Shown piece by piece: positions 5,420 to 61,451 of a stretch of 61,685 bases of DNA. Source of the DNA: Candidatus Micrarchaeota archaeon (GTDB lineage: Archaea; Micrarchaeota; Micrarchaeia; Anstonellales; Anstonellaceae); the NCBI GenBank assembly GCA_964650545.1, contig CAZYTZ010000002.1:1-61685 (forward strand). Reading direction: 5' to 3'. Numbering within the stretch: position 1 is the stretch's first letter; each line of letters opens with the position of its first letter. Below the pieces are notes generated by a model that ran no database searches, was not told the origin of the DNA, and was given only the letters and a program-made list of their open reading frames with translations. A program made the position numbers and the translations under genes.

Positions 5420-5494
5420 GGCGCGTTCAGCATTGAGCGACGCATCGCTCAATGTCTGATGCATTTTGCTTGCGCAAAATGCACATGCCGCGCC
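5420..5494. repeat. Three-way-junction palindromic element, copy A
   Basis: An outer stem (ggcgcg 5420-5425 / cgcgcc 5489-5494) encloses two hairpins. One is cattgagcga-cgca-tcgctcaatg (5431-5454). The other is tgcattttgc-ttgc-gcaaaatgca (5460-5483). They are joined by a tctga linker. A homologous inverted copy lies at 61265-61334. Confidence 0.6.
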
Positions 5495-37756: not shown

Positions 37757-38092
37757 ATGATGCCTGGAATGGACCCCAAGGGAATGGCGAAGATGATGGC
37801 GCAAATGGGCATAAAGACTGATGAGATTGACGCCTCCAAGGTGGTCATCGAGCTGAAAGAAGGCGGCAGGCTGGTGGTTTTCGAGCCGCAGGTCGTGCAA
37901 ATCGACATGAAGGGGCAGAAGTCCTTCCAAATATCCGGCAAGGTGCATGAGGAGCAGGAAGCTGGCGAGGATGACATCAAGATGGTGATGGAAGCCGCAG
38001 GCTGCGGACGCGAAGAGGCGCAAAACGCGCTGCGCGAGACATCTGGAGATATCGCTGAGGCGATAATTCGCCTAAAAGGCGAAGAGGAATAG
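37757..38092 (+). CDS. nac: Nascent polypeptide-associated complex protein (NAC domain plus UBA)
   Basis: MAKMMAQMGIKTDEIDASKVVIELKEGGRLVVFEPQVVQIDMKGQKSFQISG plus the C-terminal UBA DIKMVMEAAGCGREEAQNALRETSGDIAEAIIRLK. Confidence 0.9.
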   Translation: MMPGMDPKGMAKMMAQMGIKTDEIDASKVVIELKEGGRLVVFEPQVVQIDMKGQKSFQISGKVHEEQEAGEDDIKMVMEAAGCGREEAQNALRETSGDIAEAIIRLKGEEE

Positions 38093-38101
38093 CGCCTTTT
38101 A

Positions 38102-38238
38102 GACGATGGCATCGCGGAAGCAATTATCAGGCTGAAAGGAGATGAAGGATAGCTGAGGCGACCTTCAACCGCGCAGCGGTTGGGGGGACAGGGGTCGCAG
38201 ACACCTGGATCATCAAGCTGAAAGGCGACGACGAGTAG
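38102..38238 (+). repeat. Two degenerate tandem 'echo' copies of the nac 3' end
   Basis: 38102-38152 (in frame with nac, after its TAG) encodes DDGIAEAIIRLKGDEG-TAG. 38146-38238 (a different frame) encodes RIAEA...DTWIIKLKGDDE-TAG. Copy 2 differs from the native end only at synonymous positions across IAEAIIRLKG. Confidence 0.7.
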
Positions 38239-38490
38239 CAAGGGACGAAATGCGCAGTTTCCGCCGGGAATTTATTGCGAATAGCGCAAGCGTGTCCCAA
38301 ATGAAACATTCCTTTTTTATATGCCTAGCAGCAGAGTAAACTTGATTTTGATGAATTTGGATGCTAAGCGCAATATTGGCAGTTTCTATGCGCTTAGCTC
38401 TGATTTTGCCATCCTTGGCTGATGGCTTGGCTCTTTCGGCTTGGCGGGTCGGAAAGCCTCCTGAAAAATATGCTCTAGCGCGGGCGCTTT

Positions 38491-50917: not shown

Positions 50918-52174
50918 ATGCTGTCACTTAAGCTTATCCGCGAGGACCCGTCAATTCTGGAGGATTCGCTCAGGAAGCGCGGAGCAGACACTGCGCCTGC
51001 TGCCGAGCTTATGGCGCTTGACAAGAAATGGCGCGTTTTGAAAAACGAGGCTGACAACCTGAAAGCCGAGAGGAATGCGGCGTCGTCAAAGATTGCCGAG
51101 GCTAAAAAGAAAGGCGAGAGTGTGGACAAAATACTTGCAACTACGAAAAAGCTCGCAACGGACATTTCCGCTGCGGATGAAAAGGCAAATGCGCTTGAGG
51201 CGCAGATGAATGGAATATTGATGACGGTTGCAAACATCCCTGACAAGAGCGTGCCGGTTGGCAAGGATGAGGCGAGCAACCCTGAAGTGAGAAAGTGGGG
51301 CACCCCTAAAAAGACAAGCAAGGACTCCAAGCCACACTACGAGGTGTCTGAAAAGCTCATTGACTTTGAGCGCGGCTCAAAAATATCTGGCCATAGGTTT
51401 GTTTTCCTGAAAGGGCTTGCGGCTCGCTTGGAGCGCTCGCTCATAAACTTCATGCTTGACCTTCAGGCAATGAACGGCTACACTGAGCTCTTGCCCCCAT
51501 TCATGGTGACCACGAAAACAATGACCGGCACCGGGCAGCTGCCGAAATTCGCCGAGGAGCTTTATAAGTGCGAGAACGAGGATCTGTGGCTGATTCCGAC
51601 TGCAGAAGTGCCTGTCACCAACCTTTTTTCAGGTGAAATATTGAAAGAAGAGCAGCTCCCCATGTCGTTCTGCGCCTATTCCGCGTGCTTCAGGCGCGAG
51701 GCAGGCTCGTACCAAAAAGACATCAAGGGAATAATGCGCCAGCATCAGTTCAACAAGGTGGAGCTGGTGAAATTCACCACGCCGGAAGAGTCGTACAGCG
51801 AGCTTGAGAAGCTCACGAAAGATGCTGAGTCAGTGCTGAAGAAGCTTGAGCTGCCTTACAGGGTAATTGAGCTTTGCACGGGTGATTTGGGATTTGCGTC
51901 CGCAAAGACGTATGACTTGGAAGTGTGGCTGCCATCGCAGGACAAGTACCGCGAGATTTCATCCTGCTCGAATTGCACTGATTTCCAGTCAAGGCGCGCG
52001 AACATCCGCTTCCGCAGGGGCGGCAAGATGGAATACGTTCACACGCTCAACGGCAGCGGCATTGCCGTTGGCAGGACAATGATTGCCATAATGGAGAATT
52101 TCCAGGATGAGAACGGCTTTGACGTGCCAAAGGCCTTGCGCGACTACATGCGCTGCGACAGAGTTGACTTCTAG
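50918..52174 (+). CDS. serS: Seryl-tRNA synthetase
   Basis: An N-terminal coiled-coil arm, then class II motifs (FRREAGS..., GSGIAVGRT). It starts directly after the serA stop. Confidence 0.95.
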   Translation: MLSLKLIREDPSILEDSLRKRGADTAPAAELMALDKKWRVLKNEADNLKAERNAASSKIAEAKKKGESVDKILATTKKLATDISAADEKANALEAQMNGILMTVANIPDKSVPVGKDEASNPEVRKWGTPKKTSKDSKPHYEVSEKLIDFERGSKISGHRFVFLKGLAARLERSLINFMLDLQAMNGYTELLPPFMVTTKTMTGTGQLPKFAEELYKCENEDLWLIPTAEVPVTNLFSGEILKEEQLPMSFCAYSACFRREAGSYQKDIKGIMRQHQFNKVELVKFTTPEESYSELEKLTKDAESVLKKLELPYRVIELCTGDLGFASAKTYDLEVWLPSQDKYREISSCSNCTDFQSRRANIRFRRGGKMEYVHTLNGSGIAVGRTMIAIMENFQDENGFDVPKALRDYMRCDRVDF

Positions 52175-53313
52175 CCCTCTGCAACCTCTTTTTCGATCCG
52201 TTCTTTTACTTCGGCAAGGAATTTGCTGTTTCCCTCAAGGAGCATCTCAAAGACGTGCTCGGGGTCGCCAAGCGTGAAATTCGCTTCCTTCAGCTTCTTG
52301 CGCAATATTTCCATGCCCTGCTGGCGTGCCGAGAGCTTTTTCTCGCGCGAAAGCTTGATTTGCGCGATTCTCTCTTTCAGGCTCTCGGAGTTCATGCTGT
52401 TGTCAATGAAAACATTGTCGCCAAGCGCAGGAAGGGAAAGGTCTGCCGTGCCAAAGCCCGGCGCAAGCGTGCCTTTCACCACTATTTTTACCAGTGAATC
52501 AGGCGCGCCGGCAAGAAGGCGGCGCGCTTCTGCCTCCACTTTTGCGCGTATTTCATCAGGCTTTGCCGCCTCGAATGTGAGGATGCTGTGGAAGAGCTGG
52601 CGCGAGGCAATTGGCTTGAATTCGGCCTTGCGCGCAACAGTGTCGTAGAGCAGCCAGCCGCGCTTTCCAGCCTCGTCCTCGCGAAGTTGCGTCACCACTG
52701 TGCTTCCGGGGTTTATCACCTTGCCTGAAAGCGTTGGCTTGTGAATGTGGCCGCATAAATAGAGGTCATAGCCTGCGGGAAGGTCGTCAAACGTAATGAA
52801 AATGTCATTTCCGGAGATGTCAAACTCCTGGAAGGACTGGTGGACAACGAAAATGTTGAATGCGCCATGTTGGGGCTTGCAGGTGATCTGCGAAAGCGCA
52901 TCCTTGGCATAGTCCTCAGGCACGCTTCCCATGCCTGAAATTGCGACTTTTTCGCCCTTGTGCTCATGCAGCACCGTTGTGTTGTGGAAAAGGGTGAGAA
53001 GGCCCGAGTGGGCGAGAAGCTCTGTTGGGTGCACAAATCCCTTGGCGCGCCTGTCGTGGTTGCCGTGGATTGCGTAAATTGGAACCCCTTCCATGCCGCG
53101 CGAGCGGAAAATGGCAAGCGCCTCGCGCAATATGCCCGTCACCTCTGAAAGAGTTTCCATGCGGGGAAGCGAGACGTCGAAGTTGTCCCCGCCCAAAATG
53201 AGCAGGTCTGCCTCGCGCGCGGCTGACAGGATGGCCTCTTTCCCCTGCTTGTAGGCGTCTTGCTCAAAGCGGCGGTAGCCAAAATGCGTATCTGTCACAA
53301 ATGCAACGCGCAT
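52171..53313 (-). CDS. mre11: Mre11/SbcD-type metallophosphoesterase nuclease
   Basis: FVTDTHFG, GGDNFD, IHGNHD and CGHIH motifs. Confidence 0.8.
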   Translation of the reverse strand: MRVAFVTDTHFGYRRFEQDAYKQGKEAILSAAREADLLILGGDNFDVSLPRMETLSEVTGILREALAIFRSRGMEGVPIYAIHGNHDRRAKGFVHPTELLAHSGLLTLFHNTTVLHEHKGEKVAISGMGSVPEDYAKDALSQITCKPQHGAFNIFVVHQSFQEFDISGNDIFITFDDLPAGYDLYLCGHIHKPTLSGKVINPGSTVVTQLREDEAGKRGWLLYDTVARKAEFKPIASRQLFHSILTFEAAKPDEIRAKVEAEARRLLAGAPDSLVKIVVKGTLAPGFGTADLSLPALGDNVFIDNSMNSESLKERIAQIKLSREKKLSARQQGMEILRKKLKEANFTLGDPEHVFEMLLEGNSKFLAEVKERIEKEVAEG

Positions 53314-53551: not shown

Positions 53552-54460
53552 ATGGCTATTGAAAAATGCCCCGAATGCAGCAGCGCAAGGCTTACGCGCG
53601 ACTATGAAAAGGGCGAGATTGTGTGCTCGAACTGCGGCTTGATAATTGCCGAGAACCTCGAGGACCCTCGCCCTGAGTGGCGTGCGTTTGACGCAGAGCA
53701 GCGCGAGAAGCGCGCACGCGGCGGAGCGCCCATCAAGTACATGCGCCCAAACAAGGGGCTTGTCACCGAGATTGACCAGTACAACCGCGACATCCGCGGG
53801 GCTAAAATTTCCCCCAAGAAGCAGGCGCAGCTCTACAGAATGAGGAAGTGGCACAAGAGGGCATCCATTGCCTCGTCAATGGAGAGGAACCTTGCCATTG
53901 CGCTTTCCGAGCTTGACAGGATTGCGTCCTATCTGGGCTTGCCGGACTCCATACGCGAGTCTGCAGCGCTCCTTTACAGGAAGTGCATCAAGGCTGAGCT
54001 CATCCGCGGAAGGCTGATTGAGTCGGTTGTGTCAGCGGTGATTTACGCGACCTGCAGGATGCAGGGAATACCGAGGACACTGGACGAGATTTCGCGCGTT
54101 TCAGGCATTGAGAAGAAGGAAATCGGCAGGGCATACCGCTTTGTGAGGCGCGAGCTTGACATCGACGTGCCGCTCACCGACCCAGCGCACTATGTGCCCA
54201 AGTTCACGGCAGCCCTCAAGCTGTCTGGGCATGTGCAGGAGAGGGCGATTTCACTTCTGAAGAAGGCGATTGCCAAGGGGCTTATCTCTGGGCGCGGGCC
54301 AACAGGCGTTGCCGCAGCAGCCGTCTACATCGCATCTGCAATGTACGGCGAAAGGCGCACGCAGAAGGAAGTGGCTGATGTCGCAGGCGTGACGGAAGTG
54401 ACAATCAGGAACCGCTACCGCGAGCTCAAAAAAGAACTCAATCTGAAAGTGACACTGTGA
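53552..54460 (+). CDS. tfb: Transcription initiation factor IIB (TFB)
   Basis: An N-terminal Zn-ribbon (CPECSS...CSNCG), a B-reader/linker, and two cyclin-fold repeats. Confidence 0.95.
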   Translation: MAIEKCPECSSARLTRDYEKGEIVCSNCGLIIAENLEDPRPEWRAFDAEQREKRARGGAPIKYMRPNKGLVTEIDQYNRDIRGAKISPKKQAQLYRMRKWHKRASIASSMERNLAIALSELDRIASYLGLPDSIRESAALLYRKCIKAELIRGRLIESVVSAVIYATCRMQGIPRTLDEISRVSGIEKKEIGRAYRFVRRELDIDVPLTDPAHYVPKFTAALKLSGHVQERAISLLKKAIAKGLISGRGPTGVAAAAVYIASAMYGERRTQKEVADVAGVTEVTIRNRYRELKKELNLKVTL

Positions 54461-54492
54461 GTTCTTTTTCTCGCCAACTGCTGCGGCAGTTG

Positions 54493-54531
54493 ACGATCAA
54501 GAAGGAGCTCAACCTGAAGGTAACTTTGTAA
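54493..54531 (+). repeat. 'Echo' copy of the tfb 3' end
   Basis: It encodes TIKKELNLKVTL-TAA, against the native ELKKELNLKVTL-TGA (54422-54460). Across KKELNLKVTL, 8 codons differ and all differences are synonymous. It is in a different frame from tfb. Confidence 0.7.
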
Positions 54532-54541
54532 GGGAGTTGCC

Positions 54542-54560
54542 TTTTTATTTATTTTTTATT
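54542..54560. terminator. T-rich tract between convergent genes (archaeal-type terminator candidate)
   Basis: tttttatttattttttatt lies between the tfb echo and the end of the 442-aa minus-strand gene. Confidence 0.4.
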
Positions 54561-54580
54561 CCCTTAGCGGAAAGCAGGCG

Positions 54581-55909
54581 TCAGAGGATGCCGTATTGCC
54601 TTGCGATTGCATCTGCCCGCTCCCCGATGTTTTTCAAAAGCTCAAGTTCATGGGGCGTGATGCCTAGGATCATCCGCTTGTAGCCAGCAAGCTCCGCACT
54701 CTCTTTTTCTGCCACCATGCCAAGGTTGCTGATGATCTTGTCTATTCTGCCAATTATCCTGGTTTTTTTGCTCTCGAAATCCTCAGCCCCGCTTTCCTGC
54801 TGTTTCGCGCCGTTCGCAATTTTCCCGCGCGGCTTGTTCTCGTTCAATTCCGCGTATGCTTCGGCAACGCGGTCATTGAACCAGTCAGATGCCATCCGGT
54901 TCCTGCCCGGAAGGCTGTCCTTGAGGTTCCTCAGCGTCTCGAATGTGATGTATTTTGCGTTTTCGGGCGCAAGGACTTCGGCAAGCGCCTTCTCCACGTC
55001 GAATTTGGCATTCCTCGCAGCCATCCTCTTTTCCAGCTTGTCAAGGTCAGAGTTTATGTTGGCAAAGTTCACGCCTTCTTGTGCATCTGATCTCATGTCC
55101 CTCAAGGCATTCTCTTCTTCAATGGTCAGCTTGCCGCAATTGAAGAGTGCCTTGCACCTGCCAAGGATGGACGTGCGCTCCATAGCCCGCCCTCCCCTTT
55201 TTGCGGCTTCCTGCTTCATTTCTGCAACATATTGCACTGCCGCTATACTAGTGAGACTTAGCGCAACAGGAATCATCTTCTTATACAATATCAGCTTGTC
55301 TTTTTCATCCCCAGTCAAGAGGTCGCTGCCCAAAAGCGCATCTATGTCTGCCAAAATCTTATCCTCAGAATTCGGCGGGCCAGCCTCTCTGCTGCCGCGC
55401 GCTGGCTCGGCTTTTGGCTCCTGGAAGAAAGAACTTGCTATCCGCTCGCCCCTCATCGCCTGCCTGACGAGCCCCTGCAGGCGCAGCCATTCCTGCGGCT
55501 GCTTCTCGACTTTCTTGCCCTTTGCCTTCGCTTCGGCGAATTCACCTGCAAGGCTGCGCAGGAAATTCGAGCCATCATAGCCGGCGTTCCGGCAGAGCTT
55601 CTTGAGCTGCACGGGGTCGCACACCATGCTTTTGACGAACTGCATTGCTTTTTCGCTGTCAAAGGACGTGCTGTTTGAGGAGGAATCAGAGAAAGCAGGC
55701 TGGAGAAGCATCCTGCGCAGAGCTGCCCGTATCTGGAAGATTTCGTCGTCTGAAAGCCGGGTATTTTGCAGCTTCCAGCTTATGTCCTTGACGTCGTCAT
55801 TCGGCGCGCCTCTGCGCGCCCTTTCCGCAAACAGCTGCTGTATGAGTGTTTTGGAATCCTTTAGCACATCCATTGTCCTGTTGTGCTTTGATTTGAAGCC
55901 CCTGCTCAT
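54581..55909 (-). CDS. Hypothetical alpha-helical protein (ORFan)
   Basis: 442-aa ORF. No motif recognised. Confidence 0.55.
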   Translation of the reverse strand: MSRGFKSKHNRTMDVLKDSKTLIQQLFAERARRGAPNDDVKDISWKLQNTRLSDDEIFQIRAALRRMLLQPAFSDSSSNSTSFDSEKAMQFVKSMVCDPVQLKKLCRNAGYDGSNFLRSLAGEFAEAKAKGKKVEKQPQEWLRLQGLVRQAMRGERIASSFFQEPKAEPARGSREAGPPNSEDKILADIDALLGSDLLTGDEKDKLILYKKMIPVALSLTSIAAVQYVAEMKQEAAKRGGRAMERTSILGRCKALFNCGKLTIEEENALRDMRSDAQEGVNFANINSDLDKLEKRMAARNAKFDVEKALAEVLAPENAKYITFETLRNLKDSLPGRNRMASDWFNDRVAEAYAELNENKPRGKIANGAKQQESGAEDFESKKTRIIGRIDKIISNLGMVAEKESAELAGYKRMILGITPHELELLKNIGERADAIARQYGIL

Positions 55910-55982
55910 AACACCACAATCTCATTTCCTGCCACGAACGATTTAAAAGGCATTCGCTGGGGGAAAAAAGAAGCCGCTAACT

Positions 55983-56291
55983 TTACTGCAAACCCTCTTT
56001 CAGGTCGTCCCGGGAGAATTTGCTGCTCTTTTGCTGGCCGGTTTCGTTGCCTATCTTCTTGTCGATTCGTTCCACCGTGTTCTCAAGCCGGTGGAGCTGT
56101 TCGCCAGACGCGGTTTTAACCTGCTGGTCGCGGATTATCACGAGGTGATCCTGTATTTCGCTAAACTTTTTTGCAAGATATGGTGTGTTCTTTATCTTGG
56201 TAATGAGTTTGGACGCCCGTGTTCCAAGTGCTTTGCGCCTTGCATCCTCATTCCCTTGCCTTGCATGCGTGTCCTTATGGTTCCTTAGCAT
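55983..56291 (-). CDS. Hypothetical small charged protein
   Basis: 102-aa ORF. No motif recognised. Confidence 0.45.
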   Translation of the reverse strand: MLRNHKDTHARQGNEDARRKALGTRASKLITKIKNTPYLAKKFSEIQDHLVIIRDQQVKTASGEQLHRLENTVERIDKKIGNETGQQKSSKFSRDDLKEGLQ

Positions 56292-56336
56292 CTCCGCACC
56301 TCTTGTGGCAGATTCTAGTGCGAAGGGTTTAAATCG

Positions 56337-57773: not shown

Positions 57774-58685
57774 ATGGAAATTTGGGGGAACGGCAAGATG
57801 AAAACTTACCTTCAAGTCGCGCTGTTTTTCGCGCTCACGCAGCTCCTTGGCATTTACGCCGGCGCATCGCTCATCACCGCGGCAATGACCAACCCGGACA
57901 TACAGGAGCTGTCAGTTGCGCCCATGCCTGATGCCAATGACCCTGTAAACGCGCTTTTCTTCCTGGCATACATCCTGTTTGGCGCAGTGATGGTGATATT
58001 GGTCGCGCGCCACTACAAGGGAATGATAATGTTCCAGCTCCTGGAAGTGATGGTGGTTTTCACAGCCTCGTCCGTTGTTTTCTTCTCAATTGCGCTTTCG
58101 CTTGGCACTGGCTTTGCCGAGGCGCTTGCGCTTGGCGGAGCATTTGGCATTGCGCTTGCTGCCGCCAAATTCGTGTGGCAAGGCGTGAAGAACACGGCTG
58201 CGATAATTTCCTCTGCAGGCGTAGCCGCCATCTTTGGCTTTTCGCTTGGCTTCCTGCCAGCCGTGCTTTTCACCATCCTTCTCTCGATTTATGACTACAT
58301 TGCGGTCTTCAAGACAAAGCACATGGTGGAGATGGCGCGCGAGCTTTCCACGCGCCAGCTTTCCTTTGCAGTAACTGCGAAGAACGTGCCTGCAAGGAAG
58401 GAGAAGGAGACTGCAGAGCATTATGTTGACCGCGCAAACAGGGAGGGCGAGAGGCTGGACCTTGGCACTGGCGACTTGGCAGTGCCGGGGATGCTTTCCG
58501 TTTCCGCCTACACGCTAGGCCCGAATGGCATGATTTACGCGCTTGCGGTTGCAGCTGGCTCCACAATCGCGCTTTACGCGCTTCTGAGGTTTGTGTCTGA
58601 AAAAAGGGTGTTCCTGCCCGCGCTCCCGCCTATCTGTTTAGGCGGAATGCTTGCGCTGCTGCTTGTGAAGCTGATTGGTTTCTGA
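57774..58685 (+). CDS. Presenilin/signal-peptide-peptidase homolog (A22 aspartyl intramembrane protease)
   Basis: Polytopic protein with catalytic YD (LSIYDYIAVF), GxGD (LGTGDLAVPG) and PAL (LPALPPI) motifs. Confidence 0.85.
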   Translation: MEIWGNGKMKTYLQVALFFALTQLLGIYAGASLITAAMTNPDIQELSVAPMPDANDPVNALFFLAYILFGAVMVILVARHYKGMIMFQLLEVMVVFTASSVVFFSIALSLGTGFAEALALGGAFGIALAAAKFVWQGVKNTAAIISSAGVAAIFGFSLGFLPAVLFTILLSIYDYIAVFKTKHMVEMARELSTRQLSFAVTAKNVPARKEKETAEHYVDRANREGERLDLGTGDLAVPGMLSVSAYTLGPNGMIYALAVAAGSTIALYALLRFVSEKRVFLPALPPICLGGMLALLLVKLIGF

Positions 58686-58725
58686 AAAAAGCATCTTTAT
58701 AAGCAGCCTTTGATATACTCGTTCT

Positions 58726-59130
58726 ATGGGCAATAGTTTCACCTACCCGTCTGTGGAGAAGGTTGAGGAATACAACCTGCTGGCTCTTGCGCTGATTAAG
58801 GTGAAAAAGGCAGACTCCCACAAAGTCCTCTCAAGCCATAAGATTCAAATTGCAATAAAGGAATCCGCGGCTGCCGAAGGGGACGTCTATGCAAAGGCAG
58901 CCGTCCTTATCCGTGCCCTGGCCCGCGCCCACGCATTTGCAAGCGGCAACCGCAGGACCGCATTCATAACAGCAAAGTCGTTCGTGCTTTCGAATAAAGG
59001 GCAGTTCAGGATTGCCGACGACCCGCACTACGCGAAAGTGATGCGGGGGATACGCGAAGATTATTATACTTTGGATGAAATAAGGGAATGGATACAACAT
59101 GGTAAAATCAGGGAATTCAAGCGCATCTAG
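58726..59130 (+). CDS. doc: Doc/Fic-family protein
   Basis: The Fic/Doc motif HAFASGNRRTAF is close to the Doc-type HxFxxGNKR. An SAAAEG (S-x3-E-G) lies N-terminal of it. Confidence 0.8.
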   Translation: MGNSFTYPSVEKVEEYNLLALALIKVKKADSHKVLSSHKIQIAIKESAAAEGDVYAKAAVLIRALARAHAFASGNRRTAFITAKSFVLSNKGQFRIADDPHYAKVMRGIREDYYTLDEIREWIQHGKIREFKRI

Positions 59131-59239
59131 GCTCAGGATAGTTTCCGAGGAAATAGGCAGCTTCGGCAAGCTGATTGATGGGCACAGGAAACTGCTGGCG
59201 GCAATCGGTGAACTTTAAGCCGCGCTTCTGCTCGTAAAA

Positions 59240-59512
59240 TTAGCCGGGTTTTGACTTGCTGCTTGGCTTTTTTGCCTTTCTATTCTTCAGCTCTTCCGTC
59301 TCTTTTTTTGCCGCGTCCTTGATTTCCTGCACGAGCGCGTCGATTTGCGCGTCGTCCATGCCGTGCGCGGCTGCGCCTTCCTCAATCGTTTCGTAAGCCG
59401 CGAGCTGGCAGCCTATGCAGTGGAAGCCGTGCCCGAGGAGCACCGAGGCTGCGGAAATGTGGTTGATGATAAGCTCGCCAATGGGCGTTTTGCGGCTGAT
59501 TTCAAGCGCCAT
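59240..59512 (-). CDS. DUF1858 / hybrid-cluster-protein-associated redox disulfide domain protein
   Basis: TPIGELIINHISAASVLLGHGFHCIGCQLAAYETIEEGAAAHGMD. The start is at the internal MALEIS. Confidence 0.7.
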   Translation of the reverse strand: MALEISRKTPIGELIINHISAASVLLGHGFHCIGCQLAAYETIEEGAAAHGMDDAQIDALVQEIKDAAKKETEELKNRKAKKPSSKSKPG

Positions 59513-61264: not shown

Positions 61265-61334
61265 GGACAGCGATGTGCATTTTGCAAAGCAAAATGCATC
61301 AGACATCGAGCGAAGCTCGATGCTGAAGCTGTCC
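61265..61334. repeat. Three-way-junction palindromic element, copy B (inverted relative to copy A)
   Basis: An outer stem (ggacagc / gctgtcc) encloses tgcattttgc-aaa-gcaaaatgca (61276-61298) and catcgagc-gaa-gctcgatg (61304-61322). The reverse complement aligns with 5420-5494, with compensatory stem changes. Confidence 0.6.
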
Positions 61335-61379
61335 AGATTTTGACCCGCAGGTCAAAACGGGGGCTCGAACCGCAGTGAG

Positions 61380-61451
61380 AGCCCCCGACGAGATTTGAAC
61401 TCGTGACATCCAGTTTACGAAACTGGCGCTCTACCGCTGAGCTACAGGGGC
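61380..61451 (-). tRNA. tRNA-Thr (anticodon CGU)
   Basis: Hand-folded cloverleaf: acceptor GCCCCTG/CGGGGGC (one G-U pair), D-arm GCTC-AGCGGTA-GAGC, anticodon arm CCAGT-TTCGTAA-ACTGG, variable loop ATGTC, T-arm ACGAG-TTCAAAT-CTCGT, discriminator T. 72 nt, no encoded CCA. Confidence 0.9.

Follow-up and report, generated by a model that had tools for sequence, protein, structure and literature searches.

In fungal mitochondria (Allomyces macrogynus atp6; Glomus atp6, atp9, cox2 and nad3), mobile endonuclease open reading frames (ORFs) bring a foreign C-terminus into a gene and leave the native one downstream; nucleotide identity to sister species is 91-98% for the native piece but 64-81% for the inserted one, with nearly identical proteins (PMC3630166). 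Archaeal elements insert into the 3'-distal parts of tRNA or protein genes, some supplying a new stop, and crenarchaeal attachment (att) sites measure 29-69 bp (PMC6563490). In Rhs/contact-dependent inhibition (CDI) orphan tips and in the effector-immunity arrays of the V. cholerae type VI secretion system (T6SS), 3' modules are displaced sequentially by homology-facilitated illegitimate recombination (PMC5361080). Here, a 61,685-nt stretch of a Candidatus Micrarchaeota archaeon (contig CAZYTZ010000002.1, positions 1-61,685; this whole 61-kb stretch is termed the window) carries a gene for transcription factor B (tfb) whose last codons and stop are encoded a second time just downstream. This second copy, the echo, is probably the native tfb end, displaced by recombination with diverged DNA, a process referred to here as gene-end displacement.

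Sequence comparison of tfb and its neighbouring genes places the window in Micrarchaeota, DPANN archaea. Such archaea are uncultivated, tiny and dependent on hosts, and to our knowledge little has been described of the routes by which they exchange DNA. Related loci compared with the window carry L-numbers (L001, L009, L085 and so on); the relatives are 80 loci from species-level genome bins, nearly all labelled Micrarchaeota or Micrarchaeia, and their TFB proteins are 78-100% identical to that of the window. The exact window protein is also present on eight other contigs. Across species TFB is 99-100% identical in protein while tfb DNA is 11-12% apart: L001 and L002 share 100% protein identity with the window, with 11% of tfb nucleotides different, and the tfb gene body retains 88-89% nucleotide identity to sister species. 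The elements of the tfb locus on which the argument depends are the following.

53552-54460, + strand: tfb, an ORF for transcription factor B (302 amino acids; Pfam Zn_Ribbon_TF and TFIIB; 80 Micrarchaeota orthologues), the gene with the duplicated end.
54428-54460, + strand: copy A, the end in use (KKELNLKVTL and TGA), re-coded and probably foreign.
54426-54496, + strand: X, the inserted unit of ~71 nt (A plus spacer), an extra block that alignment with sister species finds only in the window and L009.
54497-54531, + strand: copy E, the echo, (I)KKELNLKVTL and TAA, the putative displaced native tfb end, untranslated, matching real tfb ends of sister species and colinear with the terminator after it.
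54516-54560, + strand: the native tfb terminator according to terminator scan, fold and homology, a hairpin (GAAGGTAACTTT/GGAGTTGCCTTT) with the echo stop codon in its loop, followed by a T-rich tract.

The tfb gene ends in GAGCTCAAAAAAGAACTCAATCTGAAAGTGACACTGTGA (54422-54460), which encodes ELKKELNLKVTL and a stop with the codons GAG CTC AAA AAA GAA CTC AAT CTG AAA GTG ACA CTG TGA. The stretch at 54493-54531, ACGATCAAGAAGGAGCTCAACCTGAAGGTAACTTTGTAA, encodes TIKKELNLKVTL and a stop with the codons ACG ATC AAG AAG GAG CTC AAC CTG AAG GTA ACT TTG TAA, and is identical to the tfb end at 27/39 nt. Over KKELNLKVTL and the stop (54499-54531 in the echo, frame +2 relative to tfb), 9/33 bases differ, in 8/10 sense codons and the stop, with zero amino-acid changes. 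The preliminary description of this locus, made from the letters of the window, had reported exactly this, namely a tfb end re-encoded downstream in another frame, with eight of ten codons differing synonymously and the stop swapped from TGA to TAA, and the sequence bears it out. The longest identical run between A and E is 5 nt, and the two copies lie 71 nt apart from start to start. Chance similarity, raised there as a possible objection, does not account for the match: it scores 47, as compared to a maximum of 29 when C-termini are set against unrelated downstream regions, and no upstream control scores above 32.

When nine random substitutions are placed, the peptide remains unchanged in 0/200,000 trials (P<5e-6). 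This indicates that both copies have evolved as coding DNA. As TFB is under extreme constraint, any two tfb alleles differ synonymously only, and no special process is needed to generate such a pattern. The purely synonymous signature suggests instead that both copies derive from working genes of different lineages. The untranslated copy appears not to have been idle long enough for decay, or to have been renewed now and then.

The two copies are of different ancestry. Aligned to the tfb genes of relatives, a comparison already proposed in the preliminary description, the echo matches the real ends of L085 at 31/33, L003 at 30/33, and L002 and L004 at 29/33 positions, whereas the end in use finds no match above 27/33 among the 80 species (L012). 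Since the echo is closer to the sister ends and the end in use is without a close match, the echo is taken to be the displaced native end. Its flank is native as well: the echo plus 40 nt downstream aligns to the real tfb end and terminator of L004 (73 nt, 86%, E 1e-11), and the stretch past the echo stop is homologous to the stretch after the real stop in L001-L004 ('gttgcctt...tttt'). In L001-L004 and L085, a single tfb end is followed directly by 'gttgcctt...ttttt', without the extra block. A hairpin takes its 5' arm from the last codons of the echo and has its 3' arm and T-run past the echo stop. The old copy sits 38 nt past the new stop and is still joined to its own terminator. The simplest description of these alignments is an insertion of ~71 nt that would have pushed the original codons, stop and terminator downstream. 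The borders of the inserted unit are ambiguous within the tetranucleotide TCAA, present at 54426-54429 and again at 54497-54500.

Traces of exchange may also be visible within the gene. Substitutions private to the window number 4 in tfb nt 879-908 and 0 in nt 775-878. Over tfb nt 1-701, the window has a 100% match in L085 (154-1062), a contig of the same sample series. In tfb nt 702-908, L085 shows 27/207 differences; it is without the echo, and a different gene lies downstream. Unless this short metagenomic contig is chimeric, such a switch points to recombination inside tfb. The reverse reading, in which the current end is native and the echo, terminator and island beyond it are foreign, is disfavoured on two grounds: the echo, not the current end, has the sister-species identity expected of a native allele, and the echoes at two further genes, nac and the signal-peptide peptidase gene spp, are contiguous with conserved core downstream DNA.

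If the native end was displaced by recombination, the event would have involved: entry of a ~71-nt segment of other ancestry just upstream of the native last 11 codons, stop and terminator; delivery, by this segment, of re-coded last codons, a new stop, an inverted copy of those codons (the stop-spanning hairpin with its T5 run) and a second hairpin; and a change of reading, such that translation would now stop in the new copy and leave the old copy untranslated. The gene-side join would be homologous, because tfb is extremely conserved. Consistent with this proposal, nucleotide identity of tfb between species is 88%, and the putative L085 breakpoint lies inside tfb. The distal join would be non-homologous or microhomologous, now or originally, just 3' of the hairpin, and the TCAA at both borders is a candidate microhomology.

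With conserved sequence to its left and right, the insert can move into further lineages through ordinary homologous recombination. In such a transfer of the insertion allele, tfb would serve as the left arm, and the last codons with the terminator as the right arm. Each transfer would import the re-coded codons of the donor and leave those of the recipient, so that the echo looks native to its own lineage. Extended in this way, gene-end displacement accounts for the patchy distribution, for the junction common to two lineages and for echoes typical of their own lineage. As for the tfb echo, it is most likely a fossil of the native gene end, with no function of its own.

The spacer between the two copies consists of hairpins.

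54420-54474, + strand: hairpin 1, an inverted repeat (12/12) with 5' arm GCGAG plus AAAAAGAACTCA, in the coding sequence, and 3' arm TGAGTTCTTTTT plus CTCGC.
54471-54496, + strand: hairpin 2, TCGCCAACTGC-tgcg-GCAGTTGACGA, identified as inverted repeat and by fold, ending at the echo junction.

In hairpin 1, 54429-54440 pairs with 54458-54469 (12/12) and GCGAG at 54420-24 with CTCGC at 54470-74, so that the stem spans the stop codon and a T5 run falls at 54465-54469. The predicted fold has -19.4 kcal/mol (z -3.6). Among the 60 gene ends of the window, this is the strongest stop-spanning stem; nac ranks second, and the others resemble internal controls. A stop-spanning hairpin as the normal terminator style of this genome is rejected, as only tfb and nac have such stems among the 60. 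The T-rich tract after the echo had been regarded as the only candidate terminator; this does not hold, because the T5 run in hairpin 1 lies right past the stop and could already terminate an archaeal RNA polymerase, in which case the echo would fall outside the tfb transcript to which the preliminary description had assigned it as probable. L009 has an equivalent of hairpin 1 in which two base pairs are changed on both sides relative to the window (A-T versus G-C), that is, in a compensatory manner.

Hairpin 2 contains the 7-bp hairpin of the preliminary description, which is real; its position is 54475-54492, not 54474-54491, and pairing continues to 10/11 bp over 54471-54496. The core of hairpin 2, CTGCTGCGGCA, reads as tfb 54310-54320 in reverse complement (11 nt, P ~0.02), and the inner hairpin of L009 matches the same tfb site. 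The hairpin 2 motif occurs twice in the 61-kb window, both times at echoes. In nac, spacer 2 contains one direct and one inverted 9-mer from nac itself. The layout is shared: in tfb of the window, tfb of L009, nac, and the peroxiredoxin gene (prx) of L007, an inverted copy of the re-coded codons stands directly 3' of the new stop (12+5 bp, 9+5 bp, 13/14 and 11/11, respectively). Because it is always placed on an A-rich lysine stretch, the inverted copy contains a T-run. The first hairpin is usually followed by a second perfect one, with a loop of 3-4 nt, and the spacer ends 3-7 nt past the hairpin foot. The gaps measure 35 nt in tfb, 17 and 53 nt in nac, 44 nt in prx and 85 nt in L009, with no ORF in any. 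Taken in aggregate, these spacers look like templated repair filler, of snap-back or template-switch origin, or alternatively like structure selected as a terminator.

Hairpins are also frequent elsewhere in the window, which holds ~38 distinct perfect short hairpins as compared to ~11 in shuffles, often in tandem and with loops such as cgca, tgcg and ttgc. A double-hairpin element of ~65 nt is present as two inverted copies at 5427-5490 (+) and 61270-61333 (-), 84% identical and 56 kb apart. The tRNA-Thr gene (61379-61451) has three hairpins on either side.

The arrangement at tfb recurs. Downstream peptide matches to gene C-termini, with a stop following, were sought in the window and in 861 kb of related loci; eight matches score at least 33, as compared to none above 32 in the upstream control. 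The matches in L033, L017 and L065 are false and represent tandem paralogues or out-of-frame repeats, L033 being the paralogue artefact among the eight. The seven remaining instances are tfb in the window, tfb in L009, nac echo 1, nac echo 2, spp in the window, spp in L003, and prx in L007. The best reading of the echo is the one that the preliminary description had listed first, in which recombination with a diverged allele, or with a gene end carried by an element, has left a scar. Its suggestion of a recurrent signature, drawn from nac, likewise stands: nac has two echoes, spp has one, and prx and tfb are affected in other Micrarchaeota. The proposed preference for informational genes does not, as a membrane signal-peptide peptidase and a peroxiredoxin are hit too. 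Such a common layout at other genes marks recurrent DNA exchange rather than a new function.

L009, a Lake Pavin genome from a distant lineage (TFB 96% identical to that of the window), has the same tfb junction as the window, cg followed by ATCAAGAAGGA, and the junction is seen in these two lineages only. The L009 spacer starts alike (TTTCTCGCCARCT) and has two extra hairpins; both spacer ends (TTTCTCGCCARCT ... CGATCAAGAAGGA) are common to the window and L009. The L009 echo carries Q, like the TFB of L009 itself, and its frame offset is +1, as compared to +2 in the window. The other instances comprise the following.

38044-38238, + strand: nac with two stacked echoes, the current end ...GDIAEAIIRLKGEEE and stop (to 38092), echo 1 at 38102-38152 (DDGIAEAIIRLKGDEG and stop) and echo 2 at 38203-38238 (TWIIKLKGDDE and stop).
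38068-81 paired with 38093-106, and 38166-38182: the nac hairpins, the former stop-spanning, the latter CAACCGC-gca-GCGGTTG.
58653-59254, + strand: spp echo with cargo, the current end ALLLVKLIGF and stop at 58653-58685, the echo AALLLVKLAGF and stop at 59219-59254.
58726-59130 and 59099-59218: the spp cargo, a promoter with a Doc/Fic toxin gene (58726-59130) and orf39 (39 codons, 59099-59218).
~12090-12240 of L007 (+ coordinates), - strand: prx, ending in GAKTLKPGTDLVGKI and stop, with the same 15 residues and stop re-encoded 44 nt downstream.

In nac, echo 1 is the real C-terminus of sister NACs (…RLKGDEG), and echo 2, together with what lies 3' of it, is colinear with the real nac end of L117 and the region beyond. 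The nac ends are therefore stacked with the youngest first. The two prx copies of L007 differ in 11/15 codons, all synonymously, and their 44-nt spacer has the layout seen at tfb, with an inverted copy of the first re-coded codons and a hairpin with a cgca loop. At spp, the echo lies 533 nt beyond the current end, and the Doc cargo between them is flanked by direct repeats of 33-47 nt. This cassette is present in the window and L003; the site is empty in L002, L004, L005, L010 and L014. The two spp copies of L003 are 32/33 identical, and the Doc proteins are 67% identical.

Directly 3' of the nac stop in L090 (3337-3360) stands a truncated nac echo (gat acc gcc gaa gca atc ctc, DTAEAIL), which suggests an older, partly deleted displacement. 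Also 3' of nac, at 38296-38490, lies a conserved non-coding block: a promoter-like box (gtcccaaatgaaacat..ttttttatat) is followed by ~150 nt kept in L090, L098, L117 and L127, with the motif run …ccttggctga…ggcttggcgggtcggaaagcctcctga…tagcgcgggcgcttttt and no Rfam match. This block may be an undescribed small RNA gene. Rfam comparison of the tfb and nac echoes returns nothing above chance. A match of the C/D-box small RNA model sR47 to 38102-38158, in nac echo 1 (16.4 bits, E 0.35), is far below the gathering score and is rejected; it probably reflects CTGA/GATGA strings in the L-K and D-E codons. Palindromic restriction-type sites at the junctions (GAGCTC at tfb, GATATC at nac echo 1) occur at 2/5 junctions, within chance.

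The gene order around tfb is serS, an mre11-like phosphoesterase gene (52171-53313), tfb, trxB, nrdR and spp. Beyond the echo lies a variable island.

54581-56291, - strand: orf442 (54581-55909) and orf102 (55983-56291), absent from 15 syntenic relatives.

These two ORFans had been described as convergent; both are on the minus strand, and it is with tfb that they converge. Neither has a Pfam or PHROG family match. Among 1.8e9 representative proteins, orf442 has eight relatives, which form a tiny, fast-evolving family with one weak relative at the same position in L025. The block at 54461-56330, for which the preliminary description had raised a synteny comparison, is variable: the tfb-trxB gap spans 0 to 4.4 kb, with different genes, among the 15 relatives (L001-L015), marking a hypervariable island. 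It measures 0 nt in L014 and L015 and contains a 461-aa (amino acid) permease in L002-L004 and L007, a 754-aa ORF in L001, and orf442 with orf102 in the window. Across L001-L015, the gene types in this gap are permease, coiled-coil ORF or ORFans. By Pfam content, the genes within ~5 kb of each echo include no integrase, transposase, endonuclease or reverse transcriptase, and orf442, orf102, Doc and orf39 contain no recombinase domain.

Several observations weigh against gene-end displacement by recombination as the whole explanation. The hairpin architecture and the near-identity of the L003 repeats are not fully explained by it; as the L003 cargo is old, repeats this similar need gene conversion or re-insertion. 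The specificity of perfect stop-spanning stems to echo genes, together with the compensatory changes in L009, hints at selection or a dedicated mechanism. An identical junction in two lineages with lineage-typical echoes is awkward for a random illegitimate event, and needs a single origin followed by spread with the right-hand crossover inside ~70 nt of homology. An assembly chimera could account for the L085 'breakpoint'. Furthermore, a search for the donor found no native arrangement of re-coded end plus spacer in the 80 tfb loci, nor in ~12 distinct nac loci, including all NACs ending in 'EEE'.

The hairpin mini-inserts and the shared junction could reflect a small homing-type cassette. 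Under this explanation, which is unlikely overall and yet deserves serious consideration, the ~70-120-nt hairpin inserts and the spp Doc cassette are miniature or decayed mobile elements of homing or attachment type. Each would carry the re-coded last codons so that insertion spares the gene, with a nuclease or recombinase acting in trans or supplied by since-lost cargo, and the echo would be the attR-like far half of a split target. This accounts for the common insertion point, junction and spacer ends of the window and L009 with their lineage-typical echoes, for hairpins specific to echo genes, and for cargo flanked by direct repeats in two species and absent in five, including the 32/33 identity in L003. 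The repeats, at 33-48 nt, fit the 29-69 bp reported for crenarchaeal att sites (PMC6563490). Neither copy has an intact native site, A being re-coded and E lacking the left half, as homing-endonuclease immunity predicts, and there is the mitochondrial precedent. Against it, no integrase, endonuclease or transposase is found in or near any of the seven instances. With 5 nt as the longest run identical between A and E, no crossover core is visible at tfb; the repeat is different for each gene, a variety that a single site-specific enzyme does not fit. In 61 kb the hairpin motif occurs only twice, and each site was seen occupied in two lineages only. Elsewhere no copies were found: viral contigs queried with the TFB C-terminus return distant TFB homologues only, and with spacer and junction patterns chance matches or nothing, and the echo junction, sought in one metagenome scan, matched a single unrelated protein. 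Two other kinds of element were considered and rejected. An IS200/IS605-type or miniature inverted-repeat transposable element (MITE)-like insertion 3' of TCAA is unfit in hairpin geometry and copy number (two in the 61-kb window), and each spacer is built from its own gene. For a diversity-generating retroelement, 5/9 differences fall at adenines of A and 2/9 at adenines of E, and no reverse transcriptase domain is nearby. The fuller proposal, that Micrarchaeota host a family of miniature gene-end-replacing cassettes (hairpins of 70-120 nt, sometimes with cargo such as the Doc toxin, and re-coded last 11-16 codons) homing to exactly that position, is doubtful. In it, the stop-spanning hairpin would be kept by compensatory change as a recognition structure or built-in terminator, and the driver would act in trans or be host recombination. 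If true, site-specific hairpin inserts would extend to archaeal chromosomes a selfish strategy, that of bringing a copy of the gene end along, documented mainly in fungal mitochondria, and miniature cassettes would be a chromosomal, endonuclease-less counterpart of the C-terminus swaps made by mitochondrial mobile ORFs.

In-place tandem duplication by replication slippage or template switching, followed by synonymous drift of the translated copy, would likewise yield a tandem-like layout flanked by TCAA, the inverted local copies that template switching leaves in a spacer, and, soon after the event, copies as similar as the 32/33 of L003 spp. It is nevertheless very unlikely, because the untranslated copy should then decay faster and mostly non-synonymously; instead, it is the copy that matches sisters at 29-31/33, and the translated copy is divergent. 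The divergence between A and E (8/10 codons) also exceeds that between the window and its sisters (~1 codon in 3), and the sequence past the echo is not a second copy of the spacer. A functional echo, whether as an alternative C-terminus that frameshift, bypass or splicing would reach or as an RNA element pairing with an anti-arm (A') to switch termination or mRNA stability, is still harder to credit. In its favour, no stop interrupts the -1 frame between the inside of the tfb end and the end of the echo; A' has two possible partners, the current end and the echo, of which the minimum-free-energy fold of L009 uses the echo; the folds exceed those of shuffled sequences in stability (z -4.7 and -3.4); and a coding-like pattern is kept across lineages. 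Set against this are the frame offset, +2 in the window and +1 in L009, the lack of an Rfam family match, and the extent of conservation, since RNA pairing would conserve ~12 nt, not 11 codons and a stop. A second C-terminus would also gain nothing, as the peptide would be the same; with no plausible start codon or splice motif, the alternative C-terminus entertained in the preliminary description finds no footing. A programmed frameshift or bypass is rejected on the same frame relation and identical peptide. So is an archaeal bulge-helix-bulge intron: the predicted folds are three-way junctions, and AAAG, the 4 nt past the 5' junction, is unable to pair with GAAG, the 4 nt ahead of the 3' exon helix, so the junctions cannot form the motif and the 71 nt cannot be excised in this manner. 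Finally, the window is metagenome-assembled and related strains co-occur (L085, from the same sample series), so an assembler might have concatenated strain variants of the tfb end; the likelihood of this is negligible. Over 200 nt, an identical tfb echo locus is present on 5 distinct contigs, which stem from ENA, JGI and Logan assemblies and represent different samples and assemblers; this makes the echo no assembly artefact, and the nac and spp loci are each identical in 6-7 contigs, so that all three window echo loci appear in 5-7 independent contigs. A unique 35-nt spacer with its own structure separates the tfb copies, and the same layout recurs in the unrelated assemblies of L009, L003 and L007.

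Displacement of the native end by recombination with diverged DNA is therefore retained as the probable explanation. Echoes of this kind are datable physical scars of inter-lineage DNA spliced into essential genes; for an uncultivated group of archaea, they offer a clean and recurrent marker of recombination between lineages. Their signature, a gene-end peptide repeated downstream with synonymous divergence, can be used to measure exchange across genomes. They also carry a warning for annotation: a short 'pseudo-end' or odd hairpin behind a conserved gene is a product of recombination and should not be taken for a new gene or a riboswitch. A search of the literature found no description of such gene-end echoes in Micrarchaeota, which is not proof of their absence.

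Among described systems, the mitochondrial gene hybrids share the most visible features with the echoes: an in-frame foreign C-terminus, with the displaced native end nearer the sisters in nucleotides (here E 29-31/33 versus A at most 27/33); several genes hit per genome; the same insertion site in two lineages; and a pattern that was read there as horizontal transfer. The mitochondrial hybrids differ in having a LAGLIDADG or GIY-YIG endonuclease ORF between the copies, which drives mobility, in place of the 17-85-nt hairpins or Doc toxin gene found here. No LAGLIDADG, GIY-YIG or HNH endonuclease ORF is present in the gaps between copies, that of spp holding Doc and orf39 only. The setting is also an archaeal chromosome rather than an organelle, and the duplicated pieces are much shorter (33-48 nt).

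The archaeal attL/attR arrangement resembles the echoes in that direct repeats of the gene end flank an insert (the 35-nt spacer at tfb; 33-47-nt repeats at spp) and the insert supplies a new end and stop. The repeat length is in range, arrays arise on re-use of a site (compare the two nac echoes), and relatives have empty sites. In contrast to att-based integration, there is no tyrosine or serine recombinase gene, the insert is tens of nucleotides, and tfb, nac and prx lack an identical core, which is present only for spp in L003 (32/33). The Rhs/T6SS displacements share a conserved 5' anchor, an incoming piece that takes over the gene end, and former ends that accumulate downstream by age, as in the nac series of current end, echo 1 and echo 2. 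There, different toxins or immunity proteins are exchanged and the phenotype is altered; here, the protein is unchanged, the swap is silent and the pieces comprise 11-16 codons.

The spacers themselves resemble the templated snap-back filler at junctions of microhomology-mediated end joining (PMC5728401, PMC2943611; for the bacterial G2L4 reverse transcriptase, bioRxiv 10.1101/2022.03.14.484287), with inverted or direct local copies, 3-4-nt loops and 4-nt microhomology. This route is not known from archaea of this group, and it leaves the different ancestry of the coding copies unexplained. The gene-end echoes are thus set apart from the mitochondrial, att and Rhs/T6SS systems by the combination of no enzyme gene, a tiny hairpin-only insert that is apparently self-templated, a silent outcome, and a location in a DPANN chromosome.

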